A stretch of 64,000 bases of DNA from Spirochaetota bacterium (lineage in GTDB: Bacteria; Spirochaetota; UBA4802; UBA5550), in the NCBI GenBank assembly GCA_963663865.1, contig OY760686.1:3088590-3152589 (forward strand), given 5' to 3'. Shown here piece after piece: positions 15,368 to 64,000 of the stretch (position 1 is the stretch's first letter; each line of letters begins with the position of its first letter). The position numbers and the translations under genes are program-made. The notes under the pieces are model-generated. The model did no database searches. It saw nothing but the letters and a program-made list of their open reading frames with translations, and had not been told where the DNA came from.

Positions 15368-15379
15368 AGACTTAACTCC

Positions 15380-26244: not shown

Positions 26245-27249
26245 GTGAATCCTATATTTCGAATTGAATGGCCCAGGGCGACACCTAAAGAGGTGATATT
26301 TATCGCGGTGCTGCTTCTGCTGCTCGTAATCATCTACTTCTTTGTTAAATACCTTCAGCTGCAGAACCGGAAGAAAGCAAGGGAAGACTCGCTTTTCCTG
26401 ATAAAGACGCGTCAGTTGGGGCTTTCAAGCTTTCAGATAAAGCTGCTTAACAACATGATTGAGATGCTTCAGCTTACCAGGCCTGACCGCATTCTCGCGG
26501 AGCCAGCTCTCTTCGAAAATTCGGCAGGCAAACTGCTAAGCTTTCTCAAGCAAAAACAGGAAGGGAGCTTTTCAATATCTTCGGTGTGCCGCGACCTGAC
26601 CATCGCCTACGAGAAGCTTTATCATCCGTCAAGCGCCAAAAAACCTCTGGAAAGGATACAGGACATTGAAGCTGATCGCCTTCTCTACTTTGTCGCCGAT
26701 GACAACAATGTCTACTTCGGCAAGATCATTGACACCGCCGAAGACAGCATCGTAGTAAGGATGTTCAGGTCCGCGAAGGAGCTTCAATTCCTTGAAACGG
26801 AATCCACAATGAAGGTTACAATCTGGCGGCTCGGCGACGCTGAATACTACTTCACCACAACAGGCATTCTCCGGGGTGACAGGCTTATAATGAAGGCCCC
26901 CGATGAGTTCACACGCGAGCAGGAATTCCGATATCCATATGTCGACACTATTCTGCTCTGCGAAATCAGCACGGAAGCCGACGACGGAGAAACACCTGAG
27001 AAGATCAGGGCAACCATTTTCAAGATCAACGAAAAGGAGTCTGTTATCAGGCTTAAGCAGACACTTGATTACAGCAGCGAATACATTCTTGAGTTTGAGC
27101 TCAGCGACTTTAAATTCACTATAAAGTCAAAAATCATCGCCAACCGATCAATATCGGAAGCGCATATTAATTACTACACTTTGAAGTTCGGTGAGATATC
27201 GCCGGCTGCGGTAAACGTTCTCAAAAACTATCTGATTGAGCACCTCTGA
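26245..27249 (+). CDS. membrane-anchored hypothetical protein
   Basis: N-terminal TM helix (VIFIAVLLLLLVIIYFFV) then soluble domain; PilZ-like features not convincing. Confidence 0.5.
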   Translation: MNPIFRIEWPRATPKEVIFIAVLLLLLVIIYFFVKYLQLQNRKKAREDSLFLIKTRQLGLSSFQIKLLNNMIEMLQLTRPDRILAEPALFENSAGKLLSFLKQKQEGSFSISSVCRDLTIAYEKLYHPSSAKKPLERIQDIEADRLLYFVADDNNVYFGKIIDTAEDSIVVRMFRSAKELQFLETESTMKVTIWRLGDAEYYFTTTGILRGDRLIMKAPDEFTREQEFRYPYVDTILLCEISTEADDGETPEKIRATIFKINEKESVIRLKQTLDYSSEYILEFELSDFKFTIKSKIIANRSISEAHINYYTLKFGEISPAAVNVLKNYLIEHL

Positions 27250-40150: not shown

Positions 40151-42214
40151 TTACGATTTAAGCCTGATTAAGTTTCCCCAGCCTTCATTCACTTCCTGAT
40201 GTGTAAATACTATAACCTGTCTTTCGCCGGACACCCTTGCAATTTCCTCCCTGAGGCGCTCCGCCCTTTCTCCATCCATATACAGAAAAGGTTCATCCAG
40301 AATCAGAGGAAGGGGACATCCCGAGGAAGAGAGAAATTCCGTAAGTGCAATTTTCACAGAAAGCACCAGATTGTATGTCGCTGCAGGGTTTAACCTGTTA
40401 ATAAAACCGCTGCTTGCAAGCAGAGCGTCAACTGTTTTTTCATCTATTGAATCTTCGAGCGAACGCCCTGTTAACCCGTTATATATTTTGAAAGCACTCC
40501 CGACAAGACGGTCCAGATTCATCTTTTCCCTTGCATGAACCGTCTCAGCAAGACTGTCCAGAACAACCCTGAAAGCCCGTCGTCTCCTTATTGAGCTTTC
40601 AAGCCGATTCTCCAGGTATTCTTTTCTTTCTGTCAGAATACCCAGTTCGTCCGTCTTTTCATCTTCCGAGGCAATTTCCGCATCAATGCTGTCAACCAGT
40701 TTGCCCTTTTCGCGAACTGACCTTTCGGCTTCCGCAAGTTCTGACCGGACATCCCTTATACGCTGCTCAATCGCCGACGAATCAACTTCAGCGGACATAC
40801 CCTCGTTGACAGCAGAAAGGCCAGCCCGGATGTCAGCTGACAGCTTCCTGATTGAAGAGGTCAGCTTCCTGATTTCATTTACCATGCCATCCGCTTTCTC
40901 TTCAGCATCCAGAGCCTTCCTTGCCTTTTCAAGCTCGTTCATTCTTTCAGAATACTCTATAAAGTCTTCAAAATAGTGAACCAGAACTTCATAGAGCCCT
41001 CCCGGCCCGATATTATCTGAAGGCATGTCCTTTTTATCCAGCAGTTGACTGGCAAATTCAGCTTCAATCTCCCTGCCTCTTCTGCGAAGCCCCTCAATCC
41101 CCGGAGGCCCCGAACCGTTTTTCCACAGAAACCAGATAGCCGGGAAGAGCAAGACCGGAACCGCACCCATGACGGCTGTATGAAGTACATCAATTTTACC
41201 GAGAAGAAAACCCGAAAGAGCAAATCCCCCGGCTGCGAGAAAGATGAATGCTAAAAGTCCCGAAAAAAGACGTTTCTTAAGTAAGGCTCTTGAAGTCATT
41301 TCCTCAACGAGCTCATTATTTTCCCTGTATTCGTTAAACAGACCCTGCAGGTTATCAAGGCCTGTAACATCCCTGCCGCGGAACTGGCTGAAATTTTCAT
41401 CAATATCTTTTTCAATTTTTTTTGCAGTCGCCGCCCTGTCTTTCACAACCGCCAGCCTTTCCTCAACCGCCTTTAACTCTTTTTTCTGGTTTTCAACTTT
41501 TACCGCTTCATTATGAAAAGCTCGCAGCCGATCAATCACCTCATTAAGCCTTGAGATATCATCGTTGAGTCCGGCAATCTCCTGTTGAAGGACAGCCTTT
41601 TCTTTTTCAAGCTTTGTTGTTTTAAGCTGTTTGATACGAATGAGCTCACAATCTCTCTGAACGAGCTTGAGTTCCGACGCAAGCTCATCGTTAGCCTTAT
41701 CAATTCTTTTTTCACCTTTACCGCCAGAGGTAAACGAATCTAACAGCTTCTGATACAGCGATGAATAGCCATGATACTCCCCGGAGACGAGCGACCGGAC
41801 AGCATTGTAGTCAAGAATACCGGGCATGTTGAGTTCGGAAGCCGAAGGCATGAAACATGCGGTTGTATAGCTCCACCTGTCAATGCCGGCATCAAAAACA
41901 GCGCCATAGGCAGTGCACTCTGAAGGCAATGAAGCTTCAGACAAACAATCACCATCCTTCCAGCGCATCTTGAGGGCTGCCCCGTTCTCCTCTTTTTCAT
42001 GCATAAGTTCGATGTCCAGGCCAAGTGACTTCCAAACAGCTTCATCAAGCAGCCCGTCCCGGTCACGCCGCCAGATTGAGTCAATTAAGGACATTGCAAT
42101 GAGCGTCTTGCCGGAGCCGTTCCCGCCCTTTATTACGGAAAGCCCCCTGTCAGGTTCAAGTACGGCGTCTTCCGAAAGAAATTTACTTTTTATCACGCAT
42201 CTGCCGTACCGCAA
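40151..42214 (-). CDS. SMC/Rad50(SbcC)-like ABC ATPase with central transmembrane hairpin (SbcE/YhaN-like)
   Basis: Walker A GGNGSGKT at N-terminus, long coiled-coil, central hydrophobic hairpin LFSGLLAFIFLAAGGFALSGFLLG...AVMGAVPVLLFPAIWFLW, C-terminal signature/Walker B/D-loop LPLILDEPFLYMD...VIVFTHQ. Confidence 0.7.
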   Translation of the reverse strand: MRYGRCVIKSKFLSEDAVLEPDRGLSVIKGGNGSGKTLIAMSLIDSIWRRDRDGLLDEAVWKSLGLDIELMHEKEENGAALKMRWKDGDCLSEASLPSECTAYGAVFDAGIDRWSYTTACFMPSASELNMPGILDYNAVRSLVSGEYHGYSSLYQKLLDSFTSGGKGEKRIDKANDELASELKLVQRDCELIRIKQLKTTKLEKEKAVLQQEIAGLNDDISRLNEVIDRLRAFHNEAVKVENQKKELKAVEERLAVVKDRAATAKKIEKDIDENFSQFRGRDVTGLDNLQGLFNEYRENNELVEEMTSRALLKKRLFSGLLAFIFLAAGGFALSGFLLGKIDVLHTAVMGAVPVLLFPAIWFLWKNGSGPPGIEGLRRRGREIEAEFASQLLDKKDMPSDNIGPGGLYEVLVHYFEDFIEYSERMNELEKARKALDAEEKADGMVNEIRKLTSSIRKLSADIRAGLSAVNEGMSAEVDSSAIEQRIRDVRSELAEAERSVREKGKLVDSIDAEIASEDEKTDELGILTERKEYLENRLESSIRRRRAFRVVLDSLAETVHAREKMNLDRLVGSAFKIYNGLTGRSLEDSIDEKTVDALLASSGFINRLNPAATYNLVLSVKIALTEFLSSSGCPLPLILDEPFLYMDGERAERLREEIARVSGERQVIVFTHQEVNEGWGNLIRLKS

Positions 42215-43314
42215 AGCCAGTCCTCCAAATATATTTCATCGGATTTGATCAGTTTTAACGCTGAACAAACCTCTTCTTCCAGATTTACGTCCTCAGCAAG
42301 CCTTCTATCAACTGCAGCATAGAGGTCTCTTTCAATACAGTCCCGGCTGCCTGTTTCAGCAAGAAGAGCTCCAATCATCGGGATAGTCCTGTCTTCAAGC
42401 CTGAAGCCGCGGCAGAACTCCCCGATTTTTTTAAAAGTTTCTTCGCTTATCGGAAACTGCCTCACGCCTTCCAATATCACTGTGATTAAATCTTTTTCCG
42501 AGGATGAAGCCGCAAGTGACTCAATGATCTCCGTCGCGTTAAAAAGCCCGCTGCAGTTAAAAACCTCCTCCCTCAGCCTGACGCTGTTTACCGGCAGCCT
42601 CTTGAGCGCGGTCACTCCGCGCTCAGCGTTTATACAAAACGATACGACATATCTGTCGCCTCTTTCATCAGGCTTAACCGCCTCAGGACTCCCGGGATAT
42701 ACAGCCACTATTGAGTCAAACACCTTGAACATTTTAAAACTGTGATTCGACCCGAGGGCGTAAAATTCCATATCTGAAAGTCTGAACCCTGCCCGGGTTC
42801 TCTCCCTCTGGAAGTCGAAATTAAACAAACCCAGATGAAACCCGTCTGCCCCATTATCCCTCGGGGCGCACGCCGGGTTGTACTCGTCTGCCGAAGGAAC
42901 GCCGTAAATATTCAGAATCTGCCCCTGCTTCTCAAATCTGAACGGCCTTGGACAGACAGAATTTGCAAAGACGCATCCAGCGTTAAGGCTGTAAACAAAG
43001 GGTGCCGGCCGGCCGTCCGCCCCCTTCTCTCTTTTTCCCGGACAGTACGCGACAAGGACACCTTCTCCTGCAAGTTTTCCGAAAGCGGCCCTTACCTCAT
43101 CCTGCAGAGAACCGGCCGGGTCAGCGCTGTCAAACAGATCTCCAGCAAGGAGTAACACGTCATATTCTTCAGCAAGATGAGCGATGCGTTGAAAGGTTTC
43201 CATTCTCACTTCAGCGCTTATACCCGTCTGAGTGCAGTCAAGCCCCAGATGAAGGTCTGACGCAAGCATAATCCTGATATCTTCGGACTGTCCGTTCAAT
43301 ACGGGAACCTCCAT
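42193..43314 (-). CDS. calcineurin-like metallophosphoesterase, SbcD/Mre11-like nuclease (SbcF/YhaO-like)
   Basis: Start set at MEVPV; phosphoesterase motifs IMLASDLHLG and LLLAGDLFDS; 22-bp overlap with downstream ATPase gene. Confidence 0.7.
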   Translation of the reverse strand: MEVPVLNGQSEDIRIMLASDLHLGLDCTQTGISAEVRMETFQRIAHLAEEYDVLLLAGDLFDSADPAGSLQDEVRAAFGKLAGEGVLVAYCPGKREKGADGRPAPFVYSLNAGCVFANSVCPRPFRFEKQGQILNIYGVPSADEYNPACAPRDNGADGFHLGLFNFDFQRERTRAGFRLSDMEFYALGSNHSFKMFKVFDSIVAVYPGSPEAVKPDERGDRYVVSFCINAERGVTALKRLPVNSVRLREEVFNCSGLFNATEIIESLAASSSEKDLITVILEGVRQFPISEETFKKIGEFCRGFRLEDRTIPMIGALLAETGSRDCIERDLYAAVDRRLAEDVNLEEEVCSALKLIKSDEIYLEDWLCGTADA

Positions 43315-43437
43315 ATATATATTTATATTAACAGGGGCATTCACAGCTCCGGCAATATTTTTATTGACAAATACCCCTGAAAACAGGCCTCTACTCAAAG
43401 AGCAGATAATACACACAAAAACCGAGATATTAACAAC

Positions 43438-44463
43438 ATGGAACAAAATAGCAGAAACAAAAATAGATATCAATTCAAATACTTTAATACAGCCGGCAGA
43501 ATAGCACTTATTTTTTTAGCCGGCTTCTCTCTTTACCTTTTCATATCAACCGCAATGATAATATTCCTGACCAGACCCGCGAAGGAAGTGAAAATACCTG
43601 ATATAATCGGAGAACAGTTCACTGATATTTACAACAGCCTCCAGAGAAAAGGGCTTAAAGCCGATGTCAGCTTTTCAGATGTACATGATATTGACAACGG
43701 AATAATTCTCAATCAAAATCCGCAGGCCGGCAAAATAGTTCCAGAAGGCTCATCAATAAATCTGCTCGTCAGCAGAAGCTCTTTCCGGATTGACGTGCCC
43801 AACCTGGTCGGCGCTGAACTGCCGGTTGCTGTCAACAGGCTTCAGAACCTTCACTATCACGACAAGAGCATATCAATCTGTACGGGCGCCGTTTCGTATA
43901 TACCCAGCGATAAAAGCGCTGAAAATATCGTAATTGCTCAAAGTCCGGCTGCTGGAGAGAAAATAACGCCGGACAGAAAGGTAAACCTTCTTGTTTCAGC
44001 CGGCAAAACAGGTAACGATATGACCATGCCGGAAGTAACAGGCCAGTCGATTCACCTGTGTTACAATTTGCTCGCGGCAAAGGGCGTTTCAGTGCTTCAG
44101 GAAATAGTTCCCGTCTACAACATCGCCCAAAGCGGACAGGTTGCCTACCAGAAACCCGCTGCGGGAGCCCGGCTTACTGAAGGATACAATGTTGTCCTGG
44201 GAGTCAGCCTTTACGCATTAAAGGGGCACCCCTATACCGCTTATGAGAACTTCACATTTACACTGCCGGCCAATTCAGGCGAAGGAACATATCAGGTTGT
44301 CGTTGAAGACAACAGTTCGACAAGGACTATTTATTCCGCAAAGTTGACGTCAGGCGGCAAAATATCTGCTGTGTTCAAAAGGACAGGCAACGCAAAAATC
44401 ACAGTAATGAAAGACAAAAAGAGCATACAGGTAATCGGAATCAATGTTGATGAATACAAATAA
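43438..44463 (+). CDS. membrane-anchored PASTA-domain protein (3 PASTA repeats, no kinase domain)
   Basis: N-terminal TM helix then three about 65-aa repeats with P(D/N)(I/L)(I/V)G...A...L..G PASTA pattern. Confidence 0.6.
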   Translation: MEQNSRNKNRYQFKYFNTAGRIALIFLAGFSLYLFISTAMIIFLTRPAKEVKIPDIIGEQFTDIYNSLQRKGLKADVSFSDVHDIDNGIILNQNPQAGKIVPEGSSINLLVSRSSFRIDVPNLVGAELPVAVNRLQNLHYHDKSISICTGAVSYIPSDKSAENIVIAQSPAAGEKITPDRKVNLLVSAGKTGNDMTMPEVTGQSIHLCYNLLAAKGVSVLQEIVPVYNIAQSGQVAYQKPAAGARLTEGYNVVLGVSLYALKGHPYTAYENFTFTLPANSGEGTYQVVVEDNSSTRTIYSAKLTSGGKISAVFKRTGNAKITVMKDKKSIQVIGINVDEYK

Positions 44464-52527: not shown

Positions 52528-54240
52528 TCAAGGAGCTTTTGCACTATTTTCTGATATGATTTCAGTGCCAGCATATGGCCTTGCTGATTTCCTGTCAGAG
52601 AGTTTTGACTCGTGATTATACGGTGTTCCGGGTCGATATGTGTCGTAGGCGCTGACAGCAAAATAATAAAGCACTGTGTTCCTGAGCAATGGATAGGCCA
52701 GTAAACCCCGACTGTCTGCCCTTAGATTCTCTTCAATAACACGGTTGTCAAGCGACAGGTAGATATAATCTCCCTTTTGATAGGTATTATCAATCTTCTT
52801 TCCGTTTGCGAATGTGATAATCCCCTCATATCTGTCCGTTGATGTGCTGTAGTAAAGCCTGTAGCCCCCGATATCATAGTCAGTATTCTTTTTCCAGCGC
52901 AGTAAAACATTTTCATCACCGGCGGAAACAACCTCAAAAAACATCGGCGCCCCCGGCGGTAAATCCGGCTGGTACTTAAGCCTTATGTTTGACAGCTCGG
53001 GCGCACTTTTTCCGTCGGGTGAAACAGCAAGATTTGCTCTCCACTGATAATATCGTCCCCTCAGAGGTTTTTTATCCTCCCCAACCGTTTTAAAAATCTC
53101 TTTCTGACTGTTGGAGATACGGTACCACCTGGGTTGATTGTCTTTCTCAGCGAACAGGCTGTCTGATGTGCGAAATTCCATCCAGATAAAGGTTCCATCC
53201 GGTAATTTCTCATCCCAATCAAAAGAGACGACCCTGGTTCCAAAGTCATTAAATGAATATACCGGGCTTGTTACGGTTCCGCCGGCATTTTTGGGCTCCC
53301 TGCCATTTAGTTTCCGTGGAGCAAAAGCTGTTGTTTTTATCTGATATCTTTCTGCTGAAACAGCAAGAGGCTGAAGGCTTATTTTCAACTCATCAATAAG
53401 ACCGCAAAACCCCCTGCCGATTATAGCCGGAGGAAAATCTCTGTTGATAACAGCCTGATCTGATACAACTCCAAATCTCGGCGTGTAAGGCGCGGTGTCA
53501 GGTGTGCCGTCCGCAGTTAAATATTGAGTTTCCTGTTCTTTCCCGTCAAGGTACGAAGACAGCCTTCCGTCAGACCGGTCAAAACTCAAAACATAATGGT
53601 ACCATTTATCCGCATGAATCGAAGTGACTCCGTGATGCTCTACATTCTTTTTAAATCCGCTTTTATCCTCAAATATACCATAAAAACCGCTAAATACTCT
53701 ACCTCTGTGGAGCTTAATTTCTATCCCCTGAATACTTCCGTTTAGTGATCCAAGACGTGAAAAGATAACCGCGCCATCCCGGATAGTACTCGGATTAATT
53801 CTAAATTCTACAGTGAAAGACCCAAGATCGCCTGAATTGCCAAGCCACAGGCTTGCCTCGGGCTTTAGTACAACTTCATGATCGTCTCTATAGAAAAGTG
53901 CACATCCGCTGCCATGGGCCCCCTTTGCCTTCGTAAAACTGTATTCCGCCGATAGTACCTGATATCGTGATGTATCATCATGATGCAACGTGACAGGCTC
54001 CCCGTCAAAGGACAGTGACATATCAAGAACGCCCGATTCATACTGCTTTCCATAAGATATATCAGAAACAGTATATCGGACAGAATCGCTTTGGCCTCCT
54101 GCAGCCTGAATCCCGTTGAGACCGCTCTGAGGGACCCGGGCGAAGTGAACTGTGCAGGCTTTCCCATCCTCCGCAGCAGGATAAAGGGGAGACGCGAAAG
54201 GCATACCCCATAGTATAATAAGTATTAAAACCCTGCGCAT
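52528..54240 (-). CDS. secreted protein with concanavalin/LamG-like jelly-roll and FN3-like regions
   Basis: Start set at MRRVLILIILWGMPFASPL (signal peptide) to avoid overlap with rpiB; beta-rich, weak LamG-like pattern. Confidence 0.45.
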   Translation of the reverse strand: MRRVLILIILWGMPFASPLYPAAEDGKACTVHFARVPQSGLNGIQAAGGQSDSVRYTVSDISYGKQYESGVLDMSLSFDGEPVTLHHDDTSRYQVLSAEYSFTKAKGAHGSGCALFYRDDHEVVLKPEASLWLGNSGDLGSFTVEFRINPSTIRDGAVIFSRLGSLNGSIQGIEIKLHRGRVFSGFYGIFEDKSGFKKNVEHHGVTSIHADKWYHYVLSFDRSDGRLSSYLDGKEQETQYLTADGTPDTAPYTPRFGVVSDQAVINRDFPPAIIGRGFCGLIDELKISLQPLAVSAERYQIKTTAFAPRKLNGREPKNAGGTVTSPVYSFNDFGTRVVSFDWDEKLPDGTFIWMEFRTSDSLFAEKDNQPRWYRISNSQKEIFKTVGEDKKPLRGRYYQWRANLAVSPDGKSAPELSNIRLKYQPDLPPGAPMFFEVVSAGDENVLLRWKKNTDYDIGGYRLYYSTSTDRYEGIITFANGKKIDNTYQKGDYIYLSLDNRVIEENLRADSRGLLAYPLLRNTVLYYFAVSAYDTYRPGTPYNHESKLSDRKSARPYAGTEIISENSAKAP

Positions 54241-54253
54241 TTTATCTCCTGAA

Positions 54254-54682
54254 TCATTCGAGTTCCATAATTTTGTTAACTCTTTTCTCGTGCCTGCCTC
54301 CATCAAAGGGAGTATCAAGCCACCTTCTGACTATGCTGAAAGCGAGATCTTCTCCGATAACCCTTGCTCCCAGGGCAAGAACGTTTGAATTGTTATGCCG
54401 TTTAGCCATTTCAGCCATAAACTCATTAAAGCACAGGGCAGCCCTGATGCCCTTTACCTTGTTGGCAGCTATTGATATTCCTATTCCCGTACCGCAGATT
54501 ACAATTCCACAATCCGCCTTGCCTTCCGTTACAAGCCTCCCAACCTCGGCTGCATAATCTGGATAATCACATGATTCATTTGAATATGTACCGGCATCAA
54601 GAAACTCACATTCATCAAAGTTCTCCACAATCCTGGTTTTTAAATGGATACCGGCATGATCTGATCCGATGGCTATCTTCAT
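54254..54682 (-). CDS. rpiB: ribose-5-phosphate isomerase B
   Basis: MKIAIGSDHAG...CGTGIGISIAANK motifs. Confidence 0.85.
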   Translation of the reverse strand: MKIAIGSDHAGIHLKTRIVENFDECEFLDAGTYSNESCDYPDYAAEVGRLVTEGKADCGIVICGTGIGISIAANKVKGIRAALCFNEFMAEMAKRHNNSNVLALGARVIGEDLAFSIVRRWLDTPFDGGRHEKRVNKIMELE

Positions 54683-55159
54683 TTTTAACTCCTATACTTG
54701 AAATCAGACTACTTAAGCACCAGATTTTCATTTTCATATCTATTATTCAAACAGTTTATACGCCATATAATCATAATCCCGGAATTTTGCTATTTATAAA
54801 TGATTTCCGCATCTCATATTTGATTTTTTAAATGACCTGATGTGGAAAGTATAAACAAAAACCTACGATATAATTCGATATTTTTTTTGTTTTTTTATAA
54901 CCTGCGCTATAAAGTTATCAACAGATTACCAAAGTGAACATATTTAGTTTTTTGCACTGTATTTTCAACTTAGGTATCGATAGCATTATTAGAAACAGTA
55001 TCGGCACTATTCACAAATATTCCAACGACTTATCTTCTGATTGGATGAGCAGTTAAATGCTTATGTCTCATTCGTTTTCTTTCTGGATTCATCTTCAAAT
55101 CAGTCTGATTCAAATGAAATGAAATTAATTAACTCAATTAATTAACTGAAAATTTTTGA

Positions 55160-55200
55160 TTGTTGATAATGTTGATAACTTTGTTGATAAGTTGATAAGT
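55160..55200. repeat. four tandem TTGATAA / TTATCAAC(A/T) repeats (DnaA-box-like), a fifth copy at 54915-54923
   Basis: gattgttgataatgttgataactttgttgataagttgataag read directly; reverse complement gives TTATCAACA x3 and TTATCAACT, one mismatch from TTATCCACA. Confidence 0.6.
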
Positions 55201-55252
55201 AGGTATTGACAAATATTGCGATGAACTTACGTGGTCAAATTTCTATTACATT

Positions 55253-56017
55253 TTATCTGTTATTGAATATCCGCAAAGATCCCTTTAAAACGAGATCCGG
55301 CTCATTGATTACTTTAAAGGACATTGACGCAGCCAAAAAAAGGCCGTATCCACCTGTGACTACAATTTTCATTTCACTTCCGTATAAAAGCCTTATTTTC
55401 GAACAAACCCCCTCCATCATAGCGCCCCATCCATAAAAAATTCCTGCTCTAATCCCACTATAAGTGTTTTTTCCGATCAAATCAACAACCTCGGTGAGTT
55501 CTATGTCAGTGGGTAGATTTGCATCTATACAAAGGACCTTTAATGATGTACCTATTCCGGGTATTATCAGGCCCCCCGGGTAAAAACCGCTCTTTTCAAC
55601 AACATCCACCGTAATGGCTGTTCCAGCATCAATTATTATTGCAGAACCATGAGTACTATAGCATTCTTCAACAGCAGCAAGACGGTCATTCCCCAGTTTT
55701 TCCGGATTATCGTAACCATTTATTATGCTTGTTTTGCTGTCATGTGTGATTTCATATATAAGACCGCGATTCAGTCCAAGTTCGTTTTTGACATATTGCA
55801 AGAAATTCTTTTTTACGCTGCAAACAACAATACCGTGGATTCCACTTAGATCTGATCCATAATTTAATTTAAGCTCATTAACAAAAAGGGAAACAGCTTT
55901 CCCAGGACTGTCATTGAAGTAATATACATTTTTCCTGGAGATGGTTCCGTCTACAGTAAATTCCCCTGCTTTTAAAGAGGTATTCCCGGCATCAAGGACT
56001 ACAATCATATTACCCAC
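55253..56017 (-). CDS. coaX: type III pantothenate kinase
   Basis: MIVVLDAGNTSLK start and ASKHA motifs typical of CoaX. Confidence 0.85.
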   Translation of the reverse strand: MGNMIVVLDAGNTSLKAGEFTVDGTISRKNVYYFNDSPGKAVSLFVNELKLNYGSDLSGIHGIVVCSVKKNFLQYVKNELGLNRGLIYEITHDSKTSIINGYDNPEKLGNDRLAAVEECYSTHGSAIIIDAGTAITVDVVEKSGFYPGGLIIPGIGTSLKVLCIDANLPTDIELTEVVDLIGKNTYSGIRAGIFYGWGAMMEGVCSKIRLLYGSEMKIVVTGGYGLFLAASMSFKVINEPDLVLKGSLRIFNNR

Positions 56018-56261
56018 CTCGATATTTTTGCAACTTTCTGATTCATCCCTGTGTCGTTAATAGTGACATTACAGTTAGGGATATTTATATGTTAATTACT
56101 TCAATCGTTCTTTTATCAATTGTTTTGTGCGGCATTTTTGGATTCATGTTGCTAAGGTCGATCGCGGCCTGTAAATAATTATTTGCGTTTATTTGAAAAC
56201 ACTGATTGACTCATTTAATATTTTATTTTACTTTAAGCTATTATTTTTACTGGTGAATTAA

Positions 56262-56612
56262 ATGCAAAATGTTACCACTATAGCCTCAGCCGCTGCTCAA
56301 GTTCTTATGACTGTAATCCCTATTGTTGGGATTGTAATGGGATCACTCGTTGTTTTTTTCTATTTGCTCTGGCATCACAGGCAAAAGATGTTCATGATTG
56401 AAAAGGGAATATACAGAAAAATCGAGTTTGACATATCGACCTTCAGCCTTTTCACAGGGCTGCTGCTCATGAGTATTGGCGGCAGTCTGGTTGTATTTTT
56501 TATAATTAAATCTGGTTTTTCATATGGAGTTTTAAGCGGATTGATTCCATTTGCGATCGGATTAAGTCAGATAGTTTTTTTTGTGGTCAGATTAAGGGTA
56601 CATCATAAATAA
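56262..56612 (+). CDS. small membrane protein (2-3 TM helices)
   Basis: Hydrophobic segments; immediately upstream of ECF sigma gene. Confidence 0.45.
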   Translation: MQNVTTIASAAAQVLMTVIPIVGIVMGSLVVFFYLLWHHRQKMFMIEKGIYRKIEFDISTFSLFTGLLLMSIGGSLVVFFIIKSGFSYGVLSGLIPFAIGLSQIVFFVVRLRVHHK

Positions 56613-56616
56613 AACA

Positions 56617-57186
56617 ATGATTGTTGACAGCCTTTCTGATGAAAGCATTATCCGAAAAATATTACTGGGAGAGACAGCCCTTTTTAAGCTGATTGTAGAA
56701 AGATATCAGCAGAGAATCTTCCGGATGGGTATGAGGTTTTTTAAAAATCAGGATGAAGCCATGGATTTTACCCAGGACACCCTGATTCTCTGTTACAGGA
56801 AACTTGATACTTACAGGGGGCTTTCACCGTTCAAATACTGGATTTTGAAGGTTGCCTACAATGCAGGAATTAACAAGTTGAAATCAACAGTGATTGACAC
56901 CAGCCTGCCAGAGCAAAACGAACCTGTTGACATTTCAATGAAAGATCCTCAAAAGGAATACGCTGCCTCTGAATCGAGACGTATTATCCACGAGGCTATT
57001 AACACATTGCCGGAAAAATACCGTTTGTGTATAACCATGTTCTTCTTTGACGGCTTGAAGTTCAGGGAGATCAGTAAAATTACAGGCTATCCGGTAAATA
57101 CGATCAAATCGCATGTTTCAAGAGCCAAGCAACAGTTAAGAGCTTATCTGAAGGGTGCTGACATGGAGGAAACAGATGAGATGTAG
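56617..57186 (+). CDS. ECF-type RNA polymerase sigma-70 family factor
   Basis: Region 2 and region 4 helix-turn-helix motifs (F...D..QDT, GL.F.EISKITGYPVNTIKSHVSRA). Confidence 0.8.
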   Translation: MIVDSLSDESIIRKILLGETALFKLIVERYQQRIFRMGMRFFKNQDEAMDFTQDTLILCYRKLDTYRGLSPFKYWILKVAYNAGINKLKSTVIDTSLPEQNEPVDISMKDPQKEYAASESRRIIHEAINTLPEKYRLCITMFFFDGLKFREISKITGYPVNTIKSHVSRAKQQLRAYLKGADMEETDEM

Positions 57187-57634
57187 AACGGCAATGACTA
57201 TTTATGACAATCTCGACAATCACCGGGAGATACCCTTATCACTGAGCCATCATTTAAAAAATTGCCTGAACTGTAGTCAGGAAATATACTTAACTCAGAC
57301 AGTGATTGAGGACGGTGTACGGGAAGAGTCAATCGCATGCGAAGTTGATGTAACACGATCTGTCATGAATATAATTGAATTGAGTGAAAATCATGCAAAA
57401 TGCGGAATCTCCGGTTTAAAATGGATGTCTACGGGCATTCTGATACTGGGAAGCATCGTTTTCATTTCTTTTTCCAAGAACTTCACAATTTTACAGGATA
57501 TTTTCAGCTTCAACATTGAATTACCGCTATACATCGTGCTTGGCGTGGCGATTTCTCTCTATACTTCCTTTTTCGCCGGAACACATTTAAACTACATCAA
57601 TACCGACAAAATATCAAAATTTATAGAACGATGA
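57176..57634 (+). CDS. putative zinc-binding (ZAS-type) anti-sigma factor with C-terminal TM helices
   Basis: GGAGG RBS before ATG 57176; HLKNCLNC = HxxxCxxC ZAS motif; overlaps sigma gene end. Confidence 0.55.
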   Translation: MRCRTAMTIYDNLDNHREIPLSLSHHLKNCLNCSQEIYLTQTVIEDGVREESIACEVDVTRSVMNIIELSENHAKCGISGLKWMSTGILILGSIVFISFSKNFTILQDIFSFNIELPLYIVLGVAISLYTSFFAGTHLNYINTDKISKFIER

Positions 57635-57662
57635 GGACGGCCTTTGCCGTCCCCACTATACT
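57635..57662 (+). terminator. possible bidirectional terminator hairpin between anti-sigma gene and pckG
   Basis: GGACGG-cctttg-CCGTCC hairpin at 57635-57652 followed by moderately T-rich tract. Confidence 0.35.
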
Positions 57663-57665
57663 TTA

Positions 57666-59576
57666 TTATTCAAAATATTCAGGCTTGATTACGCCCATTC
57701 CAAAATGAAGTTTCGCTGAAATAAGACGATCCTTAACTTCTTTTAGAATTATATAAAACTTATCCGGTATAGATTTTTCAATAATGTACGCAGCTTCAAT
57801 TCTATCCATCTTTGCGATATAACTGTCTGCTCTTATAGAGAACTGTCTGTCATATTCCTCTCTTGAGTATTTTTTCCCGAGAAGAACATCGAATAATGTC
57901 TCCACATCGTCGTATTTGGGTATATACCCAAGGGGTGTCTCAAGTGCAGTATACTCCCCATGTACACGTCCTTCCATCCACATGAGCCATACCTTTTTGT
58001 CCAGCTTGCCGTTTAAAAACTTTCCTGATTCCTGAAGAAAATAGTTCGTTGCGAATATAAGAGGGCGACTTGAGAGCATCTGGCCGAATTTGAAATGGCT
58101 ATTAATATACTGGCCAAGAGGCACTGAAAGAAAATCCAGGTTGGCCATTGGCGACAGCTCCCTTACTCCAGCCTTTCCAATTGTCGCTGCGGTTGTCTCA
58201 GATTCAATGGTAGCTCCAATAAAGACACCATGATCCCAATCAAAACTCTGACAAACTGGAACTGATGTATCGGAATCTCTACCGCCATAGATTATTGCCT
58301 GAAGCGGCACACCCTGCGGATTATTGAGCATTGAATCACAATTTTCGAGTTCCTCTATCCTGACAGTATATCTGGCATTTTTATGGGCTGGTGGAATTTC
58401 AGCACCCGCGTGATTTTTCTTCCCTTTTTCCCAGATACCGCTAAAATTTACGCCTTTGTCCGGGATGTCCTTCCCCATTCCGAGCCAGTAAGGACTTCCG
58501 TCGTTTACAAGGATGTTGGAAAAAATCAACTCTCTCGGTGAAGTTAATGTTTTATAGATTACCGGATCATCCTGTGGATTAACATCCTCAATAATTCCAA
58601 AAATTCCGTGCTCGACATTTGCGGCAAATGCATTTCCATCAGCGCCTTTTCTTATGTACGCAATATCATCACCAACAATAAGCTGACCGGGAATCATCGC
58701 GGTAGAAGTTTTTCCGCAGGCACTTGGGTAGGCACCGGCAAAATATGTTGTTCGGTCTTTCCCTTCCGGTCTTGCACCCATTATAAACATGTGTTCAGCA
58801 AGCCAGTCTTCATGGTTTGATTTGTATATTGCCAGTCTAAGTGCAAGTTTTTTCAGCCCGAGACTGTTTCCTGCATATTGATTGTTTATTGTATATACAA
58901 TACCGCCTTCTGTATCAATATAAATCCGCCGCTTGTCCAGATTAGCTGAATTGCCATTTTCATCAAGCTTCCCCGAGGAATGAACAAAGGTGAAAAAAGA
59001 GTTGGAACCGTTAAGGTTTTTGAACTGTTGATATCCGGTTCTATAAAGCAAATCTTCACTATGAGCCACATAAAAAGAATCAGTCAGCTGAAGAGCACAT
59101 AAGGAAAAGGGAGAATTAACAGGACCAAGGCAAAAAAATCTGATTATGCACTCTTTTCCTTCCATCATGCCGTCCATTATATCATGGACCTCTTTGTTGC
59201 CAGTTTCAACATCAACGGTTTTAATTCCGCTGGCAAGAATTGTACCAGGCTTTACCATAATACAGGTATTGTTTTTATCACGTCCTTGATCGTTAATTCC
59301 GTCAAAGTGGACAGTATGCCCCTCAATATTGAGATTCTTTTCCTCTCCTGCTCTAATTGCCCCATCTCTCACATACGCAATATCTTCAGCACTATCCGAA
59401 ATCACAGTAACCTTGTCAGGCCTTAAAAGTCTGACATACTTATCGATGATCCTTTCAATCTCCGGATTTTTCAGATACTTAATCTTTTGTAAATCTCCGT
59501 CCCAAATAAACCCCTTGCCTATATTCAACGCAGTTACCCCCTGTATTTTGTATTCAAGCAAAGACTGACGGTACAA
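57666..59576 (-). CDS. pckG: phosphoenolpyruvate carboxykinase (GTP)
   Basis: GTP-PEPCK P-loop/kinase-1a AYPSACGKT motif, 636 aa. Confidence 0.9.
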   Translation of the reverse strand: MYRQSLLEYKIQGVTALNIGKGFIWDGDLQKIKYLKNPEIERIIDKYVRLLRPDKVTVISDSAEDIAYVRDGAIRAGEEKNLNIEGHTVHFDGINDQGRDKNNTCIMVKPGTILASGIKTVDVETGNKEVHDIMDGMMEGKECIIRFFCLGPVNSPFSLCALQLTDSFYVAHSEDLLYRTGYQQFKNLNGSNSFFTFVHSSGKLDENGNSANLDKRRIYIDTEGGIVYTINNQYAGNSLGLKKLALRLAIYKSNHEDWLAEHMFIMGARPEGKDRTTYFAGAYPSACGKTSTAMIPGQLIVGDDIAYIRKGADGNAFAANVEHGIFGIIEDVNPQDDPVIYKTLTSPRELIFSNILVNDGSPYWLGMGKDIPDKGVNFSGIWEKGKKNHAGAEIPPAHKNARYTVRIEELENCDSMLNNPQGVPLQAIIYGGRDSDTSVPVCQSFDWDHGVFIGATIESETTAATIGKAGVRELSPMANLDFLSVPLGQYINSHFKFGQMLSSRPLIFATNYFLQESGKFLNGKLDKKVWLMWMEGRVHGEYTALETPLGYIPKYDDVETLFDVLLGKKYSREEYDRQFSIRADSYIAKMDRIEAAYIIEKSIPDKFYIILKEVKDRLISAKLHFGMGVIKPEYFE

Positions 59577-59839
59577 CCGTATTTAGTATTTTCTGGAATG
59601 AACAAAGCGCACGAGAAAAAAAGATGTAAAGAGCAGGAATTATTTAATAACTTTTACTTCATGATTTTTTATTATCAAGCATAAAATAAATTTTAAACCT
59701 TTTTATTGAGCTTGTGTGATTTTGTTATTTCAATTCTATATATTATTTTTATGACTTTACACATCAATTGTATTTATGAACTTATGAATATTAAGTATAT
59801 TACAGATTAAAACTTATTCATTCTACTACAGGTGCTGCC

Positions 59840-60490
59840 ATGGAAGAATTGTTAGATTATATAATTGAAATACTGATGCCTCAAAGTGATTTTGTTCTTT
59901 ATATGTTTCTGCTTGTTTCAGCAATTCTTGAAAACATTATACCTCCAATCCCGGGTGATACGATTACGGCATTCGGCGCATTTCTTGCCGGTTCAGGGCG
60001 CCTGGGTTATGTTCAGGTTTTTTTAATTACAACTGCCGGAAGTGTTATCGGTTTTATGACGCTATTCTACTTTGGTAGAAAGCTCGAAAGACAGCATTTT
60101 ATTGAACGTGACTACCGTTTTTTTTCAGCGGCAAGTATAGTCAAGGCTGAGAATTGGTTCAGACGATACGGATACTTTGTTGTACTGATAAATAGATTCA
60201 TTCCTGGCATTAGATCCGTTGTTTCTCTCGTCTCTGGAATTTCCGGCTTAAAACCCGCTTATGTCCTTATCGTAAGTACAATCAGCGCTTCTATATGGAA
60301 TCTGATATGGATACAGGGTGGTTTTTTAATTGGAAGCGAGTGGAAATTGATCAAACAGAAAGTTAATAGCGTGCTTGAAAGCTACAGTTATTTTTTTATT
60401 ATTTTCGCGGCCTCTTTGTTTGCACTATTCGTTGTCTACAGAATGATAAGATTTTTTCTAAATAGAAATTTTTCCAGGAAGAACAAATAG
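59840..60490 (+). CDS. DedA/TVP38 family membrane protein
   Basis: IPPIPGDTITAFGAFLAGSG core motif, multiple TM. Confidence 0.7.
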   Translation: MEELLDYIIEILMPQSDFVLYMFLLVSAILENIIPPIPGDTITAFGAFLAGSGRLGYVQVFLITTAGSVIGFMTLFYFGRKLERQHFIERDYRFFSAASIVKAENWFRRYGYFVVLINRFIPGIRSVVSLVSGISGLKPAYVLIVSTISASIWNLIWIQGGFLIGSEWKLIKQKVNSVLESYSYFFIIFAASLFALFVVYRMIRFFLNRNFSRKNK

Positions 60491-60529
60491 AGCATTAACT
60501 ACAATTTTATACATTAGAACAAATCTCAT

Positions 60530-62017
60530 TTACCCCTTCTGGAGATTATCCCATTTTTCCCGAAGAGAAGTAGATATTTTTTTAAATTCTTCCCTGTTAT
60601 TGATTCCGAATGAAGCCAGTATGTCTTCATCCAGATAGTCATAATGATACTTTCTTGTTTCAATTCCGCAAATCATATTTGCCAGATAAACGGCATTGAC
60701 AACATCGCGATAATCCGGTCTACTTCTAAGCGGATCGTGATGACATTTAATTACCTCAACAAGGTATTCAGGGAAATTCCATCTTGACGCTATAAGTTCG
60801 CCTATTGCGCTATGGCTTATACCAATGGAAATTTCCTCCATAACCGTAGATGTAACGATTTTTCTATTTTTTACGGTTTCAGCTATTCTCTCAACCAGTT
60901 TAATATCTGTAGAAAGCAGCACTATCTTACCAAGATCATGAAGCAATCCGCCTATATAGGCGTTATCGCTTAGGCTGCTCTTTTTTTTAATCGAAGCTAT
61001 TATTCGTGCATAGAAGGCTGTTTTATTGCAATGTCCCCAGATCTCTTCGAAATTATCGTACCTCTGAGATAGTATCCTGCGGGAATTGCTTGCGAGGAGT
61101 ATAGAATACAGATTTTTCAAACCTATCGTCTTTACAGCATCAATCACCGTTTCCATTCGCCTTGATGAAACGAAACCGGCTGTATTTGAAAGCTTTATCA
61201 CATCAGCAACCAGAGCCGGATCCATCATAACCTTCTCGCAGATAATTTCAATGCTCGAATCAGGATCAAAACACATTTCCATTAAATCCAGTATATGTTC
61301 CGGAAATGTCGGAATTCCCTCAATACTGCTAATTATATCATTCTTAATTTGGCCAGTCCATTCTGGCGGTCTTAGATTTGAGGGAATTGTTAAAGCCGTC
61401 ACGGTGATTTTACCATCTGATGATATTGAGAAAAGGTCGGGATGAATACCCATATTCTTCAGGAACAGGATCGTGAGAACAATTCCAAGCCCGGCCCCCT
61501 CGCTGTCATCCTCTATCTCATCATAAGCCTCTGTAAAATCACTGAATTGTTTAGCCTTTTGTATTCTAAAGTTAATCCTGTTGAGTTCTTCAGGAATTAT
61601 CGGGCAATTGTTTTCTATATGAACTTTGAGGTCATTGTTATTAAACTCAAAAAAGACTTTAACATAATAGTCGCTGTTAGTTAAATCATCCTTTAATAAC
61701 TCAAACTCTCCTATAACTTCTTTTTTAAATCGCGCCATCCCGTTGAAGTAATCTTCCGGATTTCTTATATCAAGAGAATTTCTTGCAAAGAACACCCTCT
61801 TGCCATTTGCTTTGATTGCGTTTACTACCAATTCACGCAATATAGTCACAACTGAATTCAGAAGGAAAATATGATCCATTCTGGACAAACATTTAGCCAC
61901 AATACTGCCAATCGCCATTAAAATAGATGCGTCAGCGAACCTGAAGGACAGTGTCACTGGAATAGCTGCATCGATACGGCTAAATATTTCTCGTTTCTTT
62001 TCTTTATCCATAGTCAC
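60530..62017 (-). CDS. GHKL ATPase (SpoIIAB/RsbW-like) fused to HDOD domain signalling protein
   Basis: N-terminal ELVVNAIKA ... DSEGAGLGIVL (GHKL N and G boxes); C-terminal HDOD with GLLHDLGKIVL and HH motif; 17 bp downstream of lexA. Confidence 0.55.
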   Translation of the reverse strand: MTMDKEKKREIFSRIDAAIPVTLSFRFADASILMAIGSIVAKCLSRMDHIFLLNSVVTILRELVVNAIKANGKRVFFARNSLDIRNPEDYFNGMARFKKEVIGEFELLKDDLTNSDYYVKVFFEFNNNDLKVHIENNCPIIPEELNRINFRIQKAKQFSDFTEAYDEIEDDSEGAGLGIVLTILFLKNMGIHPDLFSISSDGKITVTALTIPSNLRPPEWTGQIKNDIISSIEGIPTFPEHILDLMEMCFDPDSSIEIICEKVMMDPALVADVIKLSNTAGFVSSRRMETVIDAVKTIGLKNLYSILLASNSRRILSQRYDNFEEIWGHCNKTAFYARIIASIKKKSSLSDNAYIGGLLHDLGKIVLLSTDIKLVERIAETVKNRKIVTSTVMEEISIGISHSAIGELIASRWNFPEYLVEVIKCHHDPLRSRPDYRDVVNAVYLANMICGIETRKYHYDYLDEDILASFGINNREEFKKISTSLREKWDNLQKG

Positions 62018-62034
62018 ACTATCACAAATAAGTC

Positions 62035-62679
62035 TTAATATGAGCGTATTACCGCAGCGAGTTTACCCAGAATTATGAGGTTTTCGACTATAATCGGGCT
62101 ATAATATCGGTTCATGGGCAGCAGAACAGGTTTTTCACCGCTCAAATCAATCTCTTTTAGCGTGGCCTCTTCATCAATCAAAGCAGCAACAATTTCCCCA
62201 TCGTCAGCAGTATTCTGTTTCCTTATCACTGCGATATCACCATCAAGGATTCCGCCTTCAATCATGGAATCTCCCCTGACATGAAGGGCAAACAAATCTC
62301 CGCCAGGCAAAAACGACCGGGAAAGTTTTATATAATCCTCAATATTTTCGTCTGCAATAACAGGCGCACCTGCTGCAATCCTACCCAGAAGCGGTATATT
62401 AACAATCGAATCCTCACCGGCGTCAGAATCAGAGCTTCCGTTCTCAACTATCACAATAGCCCTGGACTTCCCCTGCTCTGTCTTAATACAACCTTTCTTT
62501 TCAATCGCTTTAATATGATCATAAGCGCCTTTAACAGTTATGCCAAAATGATCACCGATCTCTCTAACAGTTGGCGGGAATCCGCAGTCTTTAATTGACT
62601 GCCTGATATAGTCAAATATGGCTTCCTGTTTTGCAGTTAACGCTCGAGCTTTTAACCTGCACTCTGTGGCTTTATTCAT
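62035..62679 (-). CDS. lexA: LexA repressor (S24 peptidase)
   Basis: N-terminal winged helix-turn-helix (LTAKQEAIFDYI...TVREIGDHFGI), cleavage site region, catalytic GDSM ... K; start at MNKATE with GGAG RBS. Confidence 0.8.
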   Translation of the reverse strand: MNKATECRLKARALTAKQEAIFDYIRQSIKDCGFPPTVREIGDHFGITVKGAYDHIKAIEKKGCIKTEQGKSRAIVIVENGSSDSDAGEDSIVNIPLLGRIAAGAPVIADENIEDYIKLSRSFLPGGDLFALHVRGDSMIEGGILDGDIAVIRKQNTADDGEIVAALIDEEATLKEIDLSGEKPVLLPMNRYYSPIIVENLIILGKLAAVIRSY

Positions 62680-62710
62680 TTGTTCACTCCTGAATATAAA
62701 TACTCCTCCT

Positions 62711-62739
62711 ATAATACCCAACGCATTAGTAGATGTCAA
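62711..62739 (-). promoter_or_regulatory. near-consensus sigma70 promoter of lexA (TTGACA-N17-TATTAT)
   Basis: Minus-strand TTGACA (62739-62734), 17-nt spacer, TATTAT (62716-62711), about 30 nt upstream of lexA ATG. Confidence 0.45.
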
Positions 62740-63068
62740 CATATATTAAGTACTCATTAAAGCTCAGGAGATATATTTAGAAATTATTATTTGAATAAAA
62801 TCATTATCGATGTTTATTCAGAAATTGGCCTGCGGGTTAAGTAAAGCATTAATTGCTCTATTTTTTTATCCTGTTATTTTTTTTCAATATTTTCTGTTTT
62901 GTATTCTTTATATAGAATATGTAATTTTGTTTATTTTCAACTTTTTTAACTGTAATTTTTTTTTATATAAATTCAAAGTGACATTTCTTTAATATTATTT
63001 ATTTTAAGTCAATGCCCTTGAGTCGTTGAGGTATCACACATTTTTTGGAGACCAATTTTTTTTACACC

Positions 63069-63908
63069 ATGACCAATGAACAAATAATTGCCAGTTATTA
63101 CAGATTTCTGAGTGTATCTCCCGACTCTACTGACAGGGCAATAACTGTTGCATACAAGAAACTTGCTTTAAAATATCACCCAGACAAGAATCCCGAAAGG
63201 GTCGACTGGGCTAACAAGGTTATGTCAGAATTAAACACGGCATACTCTGCAATAATGACACATAGATTTACATCCGAATCCGGGAAAACTGACCTCCCAA
63301 AAAAGGAAAGCGCTCAGACTGTAAAGAAAGAATCAGTTAAAAAACAAATGCTTCATCCAGATGAAGCGCTCAGGCTCTTCGTTAAGTACAGAGAGTCAGT
63401 TAACGAATCTCTTTACAGATATTTTCAATATAGCCTTTACAATCTACCAAGAAGAGAATCAATATCTAATCAGGCTATTTTCTCACGGATTGTTTTTAAC
63501 CTCAGGAAATGCTATCATAACGTAAAGCGCCTTATAGAGTTAACCACAGATCAGGAGATATCCGATCACTGTCATGTTTTTATTAAAATGATATTTCTTT
63601 TTTATAAAGCCTCAGAATGTCTCAATATCAACGATTCATACAGAAATATTCTTGATGTAAAGGCTTTCAGGGAATACCGATCAGCAGATGAATTTTTACA
63701 TCACGCACAGAAGGAGTTGTTCTATGACCGCCACAATCGCGGGGTTCTCAAAAGACAGAATGTAGCAACTAATCTGACAAAGGCACTAACTGGATTTAAC
63801 TCTGTTCTGACAGGGCATCCTCAGTCTAGCTGGACAGTGGAAGCAGATATCAAATTCGAATATACTAAAACTTTGACCGCATACTACGATCTGTTCTTCC
63901 CCATATAA
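63069..63908 (+). CDS. J-domain (DnaJ-like) protein with unrelated C-terminal domain
   Basis: AYKKLALKYHPDKNPER J-domain HPD motif; track ORF begins at an upstream TTG, ATG at 63069 preferred. Confidence 0.6.
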   Translation: MTNEQIIASYYRFLSVSPDSTDRAITVAYKKLALKYHPDKNPERVDWANKVMSELNTAYSAIMTHRFTSESGKTDLPKKESAQTVKKESVKKQMLHPDEALRLFVKYRESVNESLYRYFQYSLYNLPRRESISNQAIFSRIVFNLRKCYHNVKRLIELTTDQEISDHCHVFIKMIFLFYKASECLNINDSYRNILDVKAFREYRSADEFLHHAQKELFYDRHNRGVLKRQNVATNLTKALTGFNSVLTGHPQSSWTVEADIKFEYTKTLTAYYDLFFPI

Positions 63909-64000
63909 TTTGTTTACTAACCGACTAATTTAACCGAAAATGAAATTATTATGAAATACAAATATAAATTTACAGCACTCTGCACATTAATCCTGGTAAC

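Follow-up and report, generated by a model that had tools for sequence, protein, structure and literature searches.

The window analyzed here, a stretch of 64,000 nucleotides of contig OY760686.1 from an uncultured Spirochaetota bacterium, contains between coaX and rpiB an AT-rich spacer of 570 bp, which carries a conserved element organized around tandem DnaA-box-like sequences. We consider it probable, on balance, that this spacer harbors a conserved non-origin DnaA-box cluster, of the type of the DnaA-box clusters (DBCs) of Bacillus subtilis or of the datA and DARS loci of Escherichia coli. The boxes are dense and intergenic, origin signatures are absent, and the arrangement is kept in four Spirochaetota genomes, which are the sequence-level hallmarks of such clusters. 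The element consists of three to four tandem boxes in the same orientation, a palindrome, and two or three box-like sites of opposite orientation within the next 250 bp or so. The initial annotation of this DNA had described a long AT-rich non-coding region holding five DnaA-box-like copies, and both points were borne out by our analysis, with corrections to strand and to one set of coordinates. At 28% GC, the spacer is the longest gap without a gene or known RNA in the whole window.

Since both flanking genes lie on the minus strand, the spacer follows coaX and precedes rpiB. The boxes of the array, also on the minus strand, are TTATCAACA at 55161-55169, 55170-55178 and 55182-55190, and TTATCAACT at 55190-55198. 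Read on this strand from 55198 to 55161, the array is CTTATCAAC-TTATCAACAAAG-TTATCAACA-TTATCAACAAT, with start-to-start spacings of 8, 12 and 9 bp; the corresponding plus-strand copies of GTTGATAA start at 55162, 55171, 55183 and 55191. Four boxes are packed into 38 bp, and Tandem Repeats Finder describes them as a 21-bp unit repeated 1.9 times with a 94% match. Copies of TTATCAAC are concentrated in the spacer, which holds five of the seven found in the 64-kb window, where 2.5 would be expected overall. The fifth copy, inverted on the plus strand at 54915-54923, makes up with its flank one arm of an inverted repeat, perfect over 13 bp, whose other arm is 55170-55182; the spacer contains a 29-nt imperfect inverted repeat with 76% complementarity and a core of 13 bp that is perfect. 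Beside the array, AATTAATTAACT(C/G) occurs twice, at 55123-55135 and 55136-55148. This is the AATTAATT duplication of the initial annotation, which is present but had been placed 3 bp away, at 55126-55150. The poly-T/A tract noted at about 54876-54900 is also present, as a T-run at 54880-54898. From its sequence, the duplicated palindromic motif is probably the binding site of a second, dimeric DNA-binding protein.

The same element was identified in three further deep-branching Spirochaetota genomes, designated L129, L263 and L137. Searches based on CoaX and on GTDB peptides yielded no syntenic relative, whereas the route through the LamG-like protein encoded beyond rpiB, followed by a CoaX profile, did. 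In L129 (GCA_964512685.1), the gene order is selA, selB, coaX, spacer, class II aminoacyl-tRNA synthetase, rpiB, LamG-like gene (LamG3) and cca, continuing beyond cca with UPF0102, HD, an flhB-like gene, rnhB, rplS and trmD; except for the synthetase, this is the order of the window. The L129 CoaX and RpiB proteins are 31% and 68% identical to those of the window, and blastn aligned the two syntenic spacers over 175 nt with 69% identity (E = 1.3e-11), the alignment ending at conserved block F (Table 1). L263 (GCA_024224995.1), reached by the CoaX profile search, was matched by nhmmer with E = 7e-11. It displays coaX, about 100 bp further on AGTTATCCACAAAGTTATTAACACTATCCACAAAATTATTCACC and additional blocks, and finally genes in convergent orientation; the boxes read TTATCCACA, TTATTAACA, CTATCCACA and TTATTCACC. 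L137 was reached by scanning metagenomes for the 21-nt box pair. It carries LamG3 and rpiB with the element directly upstream of rpiB, without coaX (RpiB 65% and LamG-like protein 39% identical), and the open reading frame (ORF) past the element, named from its own sequence only, is presumably acylphosphatase-like.

Alignment of the four genomes (A6) revealed an invariant core, GTTATC[AC]ACAAAGTTAT[CT]AAC.[TC]T[AG]T[TC][AC]ACAA, corresponding to three boxes with 12-bp and then 9-bp spacing. A second invariant feature is an AT-rich inverted repeat, ATTAATT-N6-7-AATTAAT, located 12-20 bp past the boxes, which in L137 is a perfect 9-bp inverted repeat (GCAATTAAT..ATTAATTGC). The three window boxes nearest the palindrome are the orthologues of the three-box core of the relatives, while fourth boxes are lineage-specific: the one at 55190-55198 in the window, and one each in L263 and L137. 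Three of the four genomes also have in common the blocks ATG(T/A)GACATAA (55061-55071), AATCAGNAGATAAGT (55028-55042, inverted TTATCTNCTGAT) and an inverted TGTTGATAA (54915-54923), the latter kept as TGTT[GA]ATAA in L129 and L263; blocks E and F are weak in L137. This conservation spans a considerable protein divergence, with identities of about 31-33% for CoaX (L129, L263) and about 39-43% for the LamG-like protein (L129, L137). As the element accompanies coaX in L263 and rpiB in L137, the ancestral order was probably coaX, element, (aminoacyl-tRNA synthetase), rpiB. The element outlasted breaks on either side, and its persistence through rearrangements that removed either neighbor suggests that it is selected for itself. 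In the other relatives sampled, which have different neighbors of rpiB or coaX on the visible side, neither the element nor a box cluster was found. The initial annotation had named a lack of conservation in relatives as an argument against its proposals; the repeats proved to be conserved.

Comparison with the relatives and with dnaA loci of other bacteria supports the identification of the repeats as DnaA boxes, a likeness already pointed out in the initial annotation. The box orthologous to 55190-55182 is the canonical TTATCCACA in both L129 and L263, and the third box of L263 is TATCCACA. The 21-nt box pair TTATCNACAAAGTTATCAACA was found together with dnaA, within the fetched DNA, at 39 of 120 metagenome loci; in 32 of these it lies upstream of dnaA, 29 times in the same orientation, and in 7 it falls between dnaA and dnaN. 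More copies of TTATCCACA or TGTGGATAA are close by at many of the other TTATCNACAAAGTTATCAACA loci. Among the GTDB loci with at least three close copies of TTATCAAC, 7 of 119 are located at dnaA, dnaN or recF, where well under one is expected by chance. They include Poribacteria and a gammaproteobacterium in which three copies of TTATCAACA abut TTATCCACA upstream of dnaA. For the linear chromosome of Cyanothece, this same 9-mer, TTATCAACA, figures in the origin annotation as a DnaA box (PMC4674748). The 12+9 layout of three boxes recurs in 7 of 96 other box clusters. The other GTDB matches correspond to microsatellites, inverted arrays resembling repetitive extragenic palindromes (REP) in Saprospiraceae, a coding repeat in MutL, and box clusters by assorted genes; Pfam scans around these other TTATCAAC arrays revealed no shared gene (MurC-type ligase, PBP5, T2SSE, NusA, Rex, and the MutL coding repeat).

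Two kinds of array encountered in this survey deserve a separate description. The GTDB loci L009-L124, mainly from Saprospiraceae and Lewinellaceae, contain many inverted arrays GGTTGATAAGG...CCTTATCAACC per genome with the look of REP-type hairpins; they are unrelated to the element, yet make up the bulk of the genome-wide motif matches. Arrays with an 11-bp period, (TTATCAACAAG)n, occur near dnaA and recF in Poribacteria (L012, L096, L125) and by nusA in L082 and L086 (Babeliales and another metagenome-assembled genome, MAG), and are likely lineage-specific origin or DnaA-box arrays.

The element is not the chromosomal origin, so that the replication origin proposed among the candidates of the initial annotation is contradicted. 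Raw GC skew is negative across the whole window. As skew follows gene orientation, it was modeled gene by gene with one term for the coding strand and one for the side, using a composite of 74 kb assembled from the window and contig L133 from a second sample, whose spacer is 100% identical; this composite covers 55 kb to the left and 19 kb to the right of the element. To the left of the element the side term was -0.069 +/- 0.010, and to the right -0.105 +/- 0.019, with corresponding GC3 values of -0.099 and -0.088 and AT3 values of +0.077 and +0.052. An origin needs opposite signs of skew, and the equal signs observed here indicate that polarity does not switch at the element. The same test gave an equal sign on both sides in L129 and L137, and in L263 a polarity opposite to that of an origin. 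A signature search and tblastn detected no dnaA, dnaN or recF in the window and the 10 kb beyond it (74 kb).

Gene orientation is consistent with this result. At origins, highly expressed operons and most genes typically face outward, and dnaA and dnaN are commonly, though not obligatorily, next to them. Two tandem rRNA operons lie on the minus strand at L133:14658-20840, about 12-18 kb beyond coaX and outside the right end of the window (16S, two tRNAs, 23S, then the start of a second 23S), and the rpsP-rimM-trmD-rplS operon lies to the left of the spacer on the plus strand. Both point at the element and would be head-on to replication forks leaving it, and the orientation of the rRNA operons shows which way forks travel through the region. 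Likewise, coaX and the genes preceding it point into the element in all three genomes where they were seen, among them selA and selB in the relatives. Finally, the unwinding module of bacterial origins comprises at least three DnaA-trios within 16 bp of the boxes (PMC8287927); AT-rich DNA is present here, and the four genomes share no run of trios on a common side and strand.

It is therefore highly improbable that the element serves as the active oriC of the lineage, away from dnaA, even though several of its features would suit one. The DnaA-box cluster expected of an oriC is found, with four tandem and one to two inverted boxes conserved in relatives. The boxes occur in both orientations next to an AT-rich segment, and the AT-rich part 3' of the boxes, read as TTATCCACA, resembles the R1/DNA-unwinding element arrangement of E. 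coli. The box pair is moreover the one typical of dnaA-linked origins, the position is conserved in four genomes, and rRNA operons are nearby. Against these stand the corrected skew, of the same sign and size on both sides, with its counterparts in the relatives, the missing replication genes and trio run, and the inward and head-on orientation of the surrounding genes. A relic or dormant origin, derived from a former oriC or from that of an integrated replicon and perhaps kept, like Pseudomonas aeruginosa oriCII, for DnaA-dependent control of transcription, is very unlikely as well. It would account for the origin-like architecture, the deep conservation and the G+C step from about 0.45 to about 0.37 at the element, and origin-like box clusters that regulate their neighbors offer a precedent (PMC13438810). 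However, nothing speaks for it specifically: no replication or partition genes are found nearby, trios are missing, and the rest of the window shows no mobile-element signatures or repeats.

The best-known counterparts of a non-origin DnaA-box cluster are those of B. subtilis, where sites stably bound by DnaA contain 4-8 boxes in 44-96 bp, a packing comparable to the four boxes in 38 bp seen here, and stable binding is set by local box density together with affinity (PMC2533591). Some of these clusters repress neighboring genes, and together they restrain initiation (PMC3245932, PMC2533591); more generally, non-origin DnaA sites are known to repress or activate adjacent genes and to restrain initiation by sequestering or modulating DnaA (PMC3245932). 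Like DBC[ywlC-ywlB] and DBC[yydA-yycS] (PMC2533591, PMC3245932), the window element is intergenic, lies off the origin, gathers its boxes within a few tens of bp and is conserved among relatives. The B. subtilis clusters have 4-8 boxes, are bound stably by DnaA and in some cases repress a neighbor, whereas binding at the window element is predicted from its sequence. The element also differs in belonging to another phylum and in its additional AT-rich palindrome and blocks, distributed over about 170-280 bp. The B. subtilis clusters are mostly origin-proximal. For the region of the element, rRNA operons a short distance away are a hint of possible proximity to the origin, the usual setting of such sites. 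The ywlC operon of B. subtilis also includes an rpiB homologue, ywlF.

With datA, DARS1 and DARS2 of E. coli, the element shares the status of a non-origin locus with a small set of boxes in a defined orientation and spacing. The E. coli loci, whose boxes are essential, occupy 250-450 bp of non-coding DNA with sites for accessory DNA-bending proteins and modulate the amount of active DnaA. They show no sequence homology to the element, which has three tandem boxes at 12+9 bp. In addition, datA and DARS2 have IHF or Fis sites, while the element has the conserved palindrome next to its boxes, and neither a clear IHF or Fis consensus nor, by eye, a clear match to WATCAANNNNTTR was seen there. The datA and DARS loci are known only in Enterobacteria and relatives. 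The basal unwinding system of oriC (PMC8287927) resembles the element in its tandem pair of boxes 3 bp apart, of which the upstream one is closer to the consensus, and in the AT-rich DNA that follows, and the same 21-nt pair lies between dnaA and dnaN in several metagenome loci; the element differs in lacking a conserved run of at least three trios, a skew switch, and dnaA or dnaN nearby. P. aeruginosa oriCII, upstream of gidA, is also an origin-like cluster, with a documented role in DnaA-dependent control of the adjacent operon (PMC13438810), from which the window element differs in genes, phylum and box arrangement.

Based on these systems, we propose that DnaA would occupy the dense array stably, as at the non-origin sites of B. 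subtilis, and that a second, dimeric DNA-binding protein would probably occupy the palindrome. The resulting complex would not open the DNA for replication. Rather, it could make expression of the operon next to it (rpiB, LamG-like gene, cca) depend on the level or activity of DnaA, could buffer or modulate the pool of free DnaA, as datA, the DARS loci and the DBCs do, or could do both. A DnaA-titration or regulatory site, one of the candidates of the initial annotation, is what we retain as the best reading of the sequence. Going further, the element, composed of the three-box array and a partner protein at the palindrome, may be a dedicated replication-control locus of a deep uncultured Spirochaetota clade, kept for itself and acting as a DnaA sink or re-activator similar to datA and DARS or as a silenced second origin; we offer this only as a tentative suggestion.

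Several observations weigh against a DnaA-box cluster with such roles. Every box of the window has an A instead of a C at position 6 of TTATCCACA, a position conserved in the high-affinity boxes of E. coli. With spacings of 9 and 8 bp, neighboring 9-mers have no gap between them, which implies that not all boxes may be occupied together. No convincing sigma-70 promoter overlaps the boxes, and with 215-530 bp separating them from the next start codon, the geometry of a simple rpiB repressor is not evident. Where relatives lack the element, the region preceding rpiB is also free of boxes. Lastly, the four known instances all come from metagenome assemblies.

Table 1. Position of the coaX-rpiB spacer, of its sequence features and of other ORFs in the window
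Feature	Coordinates	Strand	Basis or remarks
Whole coaX-rpiB spacer	54683-55252	.	570 bp, 28% GC; conserved core 55028-55198
Array of four tandem DnaA-box-like 9-mers	55161-55198	minus	sequence; alignments A1, A3, A6
AT-rich duplicated, palindromic motif AATTAATTAACTC / AATTAATTAACTG	55123-55148	.	12 bp from last box; predicted, probable site of a second DNA-binding protein
Conserved block E	55061-55071	.	ATGAGACATAA on minus strand; palindrome ATGTGACAT in L129 and L263; alignments A1, A3
Conserved block F	55028-55042	+	ACTTATCTTCTGATT; inverted degenerate box-like site, form TTATCTNCTGAT; alignments A1, A3
Inverted DnaA-box-like site	54911-54926	+	TTATCAACA at 54915-54923, about 240 bp from array
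Two adjacent hairpins (54804-54848, 54853-54892), then T-run	54804-54892	+	fold z-score; element membership uncertain
coaX (type III pantothenate kinase)	55253-56008	minus	Pfam
rpiB (ribose-5-phosphate isomerase B)	54254-54682	minus	Pfam
ORFs without Pfam match	161-1243, 1306-2148, 18002-21066, 21945-23093, 26245-27249, 40151-43473

The spacer was also examined as a possible source of RNA or protein. Rfam 15 gave no match in the spacer at E <= 5, nor in the three relatives at E <= 1, and a known RNA was rejected, since Rfam (gathering and E-value thresholds) and ARAGORN returned just a transfer-messenger RNA (tmRNA) located 40 kb away. This tmRNA gene, at 15018-15368 on the plus strand with the tag peptide ANDNFALAA, is the sole Rfam or ARAGORN match of the window. 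Compared with shuffled sequences, folding of the whole spacer gave z = +0.3 for the minus strand and z = -2.4 for the plus strand. The plus-strand signal stems from the double hairpin at 54804-54892 (z = -3.4 on the plus and -2.3 on the minus strand), for which G-U pairs favor the plus strand, antisense to the flanking genes; L129 has a hairpin formed by an A-run and a T-run at the aligned place. RNAalifold on the core (both strands) and on the downstream region gave -5.1, -5.3 and -1.3 kcal/mol with positive covariation terms, indicating no conserved structure. From the single folds and these three runs, a structured RNA was rejected, the local double hairpin that stood out being not demonstrably conserved. 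Short invariant blocks, direct repeats, palindromes and variable spacers give the element the look of protein-binding DNA and not that of a folded RNA.

Similarly, no ORF of at least 30 amino acids lies wholly within the spacer on the minus strand, where the sole overlapping one (54615-54737) runs into rpiB, and none of the ORFs of at least 20 amino acids is conserved in L129, so that a small protein was discarded. A tblastn search with the synthetase found at this place in L129 detected no relic of a pseudogene. Matches to sigma-70 promoters and intrinsic terminators occur in the spacer at background frequency, and no promoter-like hexamer pair recurs at the same place in the window, L129 and L263. 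A -10-like hexamer does follow the palindrome at a roughly conserved position (TATAAT in L129, TTGAAT in the window, TATAAC in L263), so that an unstructured transcript or long leader may exist. When compared with the rest of the 64-kb window, the spacer shared nothing beyond a few overlapping 11-mers, without a second copy, and a reading of the sequence revealed no target-site duplication; a repeat or mobile element was rejected, and syntenic conservation also argues against one.

Other explanations of the element remain to be weighed. An operator array for a regulator other than DnaA, for instance a response regulator binding the direct repeats or a palindrome-binding protein, would control rpiB, the LamG-like gene and cca, and its likeness to DnaA boxes would be coincidental. 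Irregularly spaced direct repeats with an adjacent palindrome are indeed typical of transcription-factor sites, in three of the four genomes the element precedes the rpiB operon and shares its orientation, and the genome of the window has no canonical box. We nevertheless regard this explanation as unlikely, because L129 and L263 have canonical TTATCCACA or TATCCACA at the orthologous boxes and the exact 21-nt pair is enriched at dnaA loci of unrelated bacteria. The regulator array for rpiB envisaged by the initial annotation stands as a possibility, weakened by the retention of the element in L263, where it accompanies coaX alone without a co-oriented downstream gene, and by rpiB loci that lack both the element and such boxes. 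Together with the distance of the boxes from the start codon, the persistence in L263 is a mild argument against a simple rpiB operator and, equally mildly, favors a role of the site itself.

The possibility of a small RNA or a long 5' leader, in which the blocks at 55028-55071 would be seed or regulatory sequences and the boxes and palindrome would control the promoter, appears quite unlikely. It draws on the conservation of blocks E and F without obvious box likeness, on the -10-like hexamer after the palindrome, on the terminator-like hairpins that follow in L263 and L129, and on the fold score of the double hairpin. Neither strand, however, shows conserved structure or covariation, Rfam gives no match, promoter and terminator matches do not rise above background, no promoter pair recurs, and both blocks are weak in L137; a structured form of the small RNA listed by the initial annotation thus finds no support. 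As for a functionless tandem duplication produced by replication slippage in AT-rich DNA, the formal 21-bp unit, the variation between three and four boxes and the TTATCAAC-based microsatellites of many periods in many phyla would be compatible with it. It is nonetheless scarcely credible, as the core and its 12/9-bp spacing are invariant in four genomes at protein distances where neutral DNA would be randomized, and is contradicted by this conservation.

Concerning the neighborhood, the proteins flanking the spacer recur with identical sequences on metagenome contigs of 1.39 Mb and 3.16 Mb from ENA and NCBI. The best CoaX relative beyond these shows 37% identity and is non-syntenic, and a CoaX peptide scan of the GTDB species representatives detected no relative: the lineage of the window is isolated. 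G+C content falls from about 0.45-0.55 (positions 1-54000) to about 0.36-0.39 (about 54000-64000), roughly at the spacer, and the low-G+C part, which extends to the end of the window, contains ordinary-looking core genes (coaX, an ECF sigma/anti-sigma pair, phosphoenolpyruvate carboxykinase (PEPCK), lexA). The gene at 52528-54240 on the minus strand encodes a LamG-like protein of 570 amino acids with a weak Laminin_G_3 match, representing a clade-specific family. Its 15 full-length homologues have 39-46% identity, and the named ones are from Spirochaetes or Spirochaetota MAGs. Among the relatives with a visible upstream side, all but one have this gene immediately after rpiB, and in every relative fetched it is followed by cca, directly or past one gene. 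In a co-occurring strain of the same sample, the GTP-dependent PEPCK is split into ORFs of 105 and 540 amino acids (L134:1138-3034), owing to a frameshift or an assembly error, and the contig stops just short of the ECF sigma gene, near the spacer. The rRNA operons probably explain the assembly breaks nearby. Of the 30 ORFs of the window that were scanned, about 9 lack any Pfam match, which fits with a poorly sampled lineage.

DnaA-box clusters away from the origin help some bacteria to time replication and to report replication status to gene expression. To our knowledge, the characterized examples come solely from E. coli, B. subtilis and a small number of further model Proteobacteria and Firmicutes, and we know of none described from this phylum and lineage. 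For origin prediction, the element is a caution, since a box pair of perfect origin type, flanked by AT-rich DNA, can occur off the origin. As a compact, conserved example with an unusually clear layout, from an uncultured deep-branching spirochaete lineage, it provides a concrete and cheap test object for determining how widely control sites of this kind are distributed and what partner proteins act with them.

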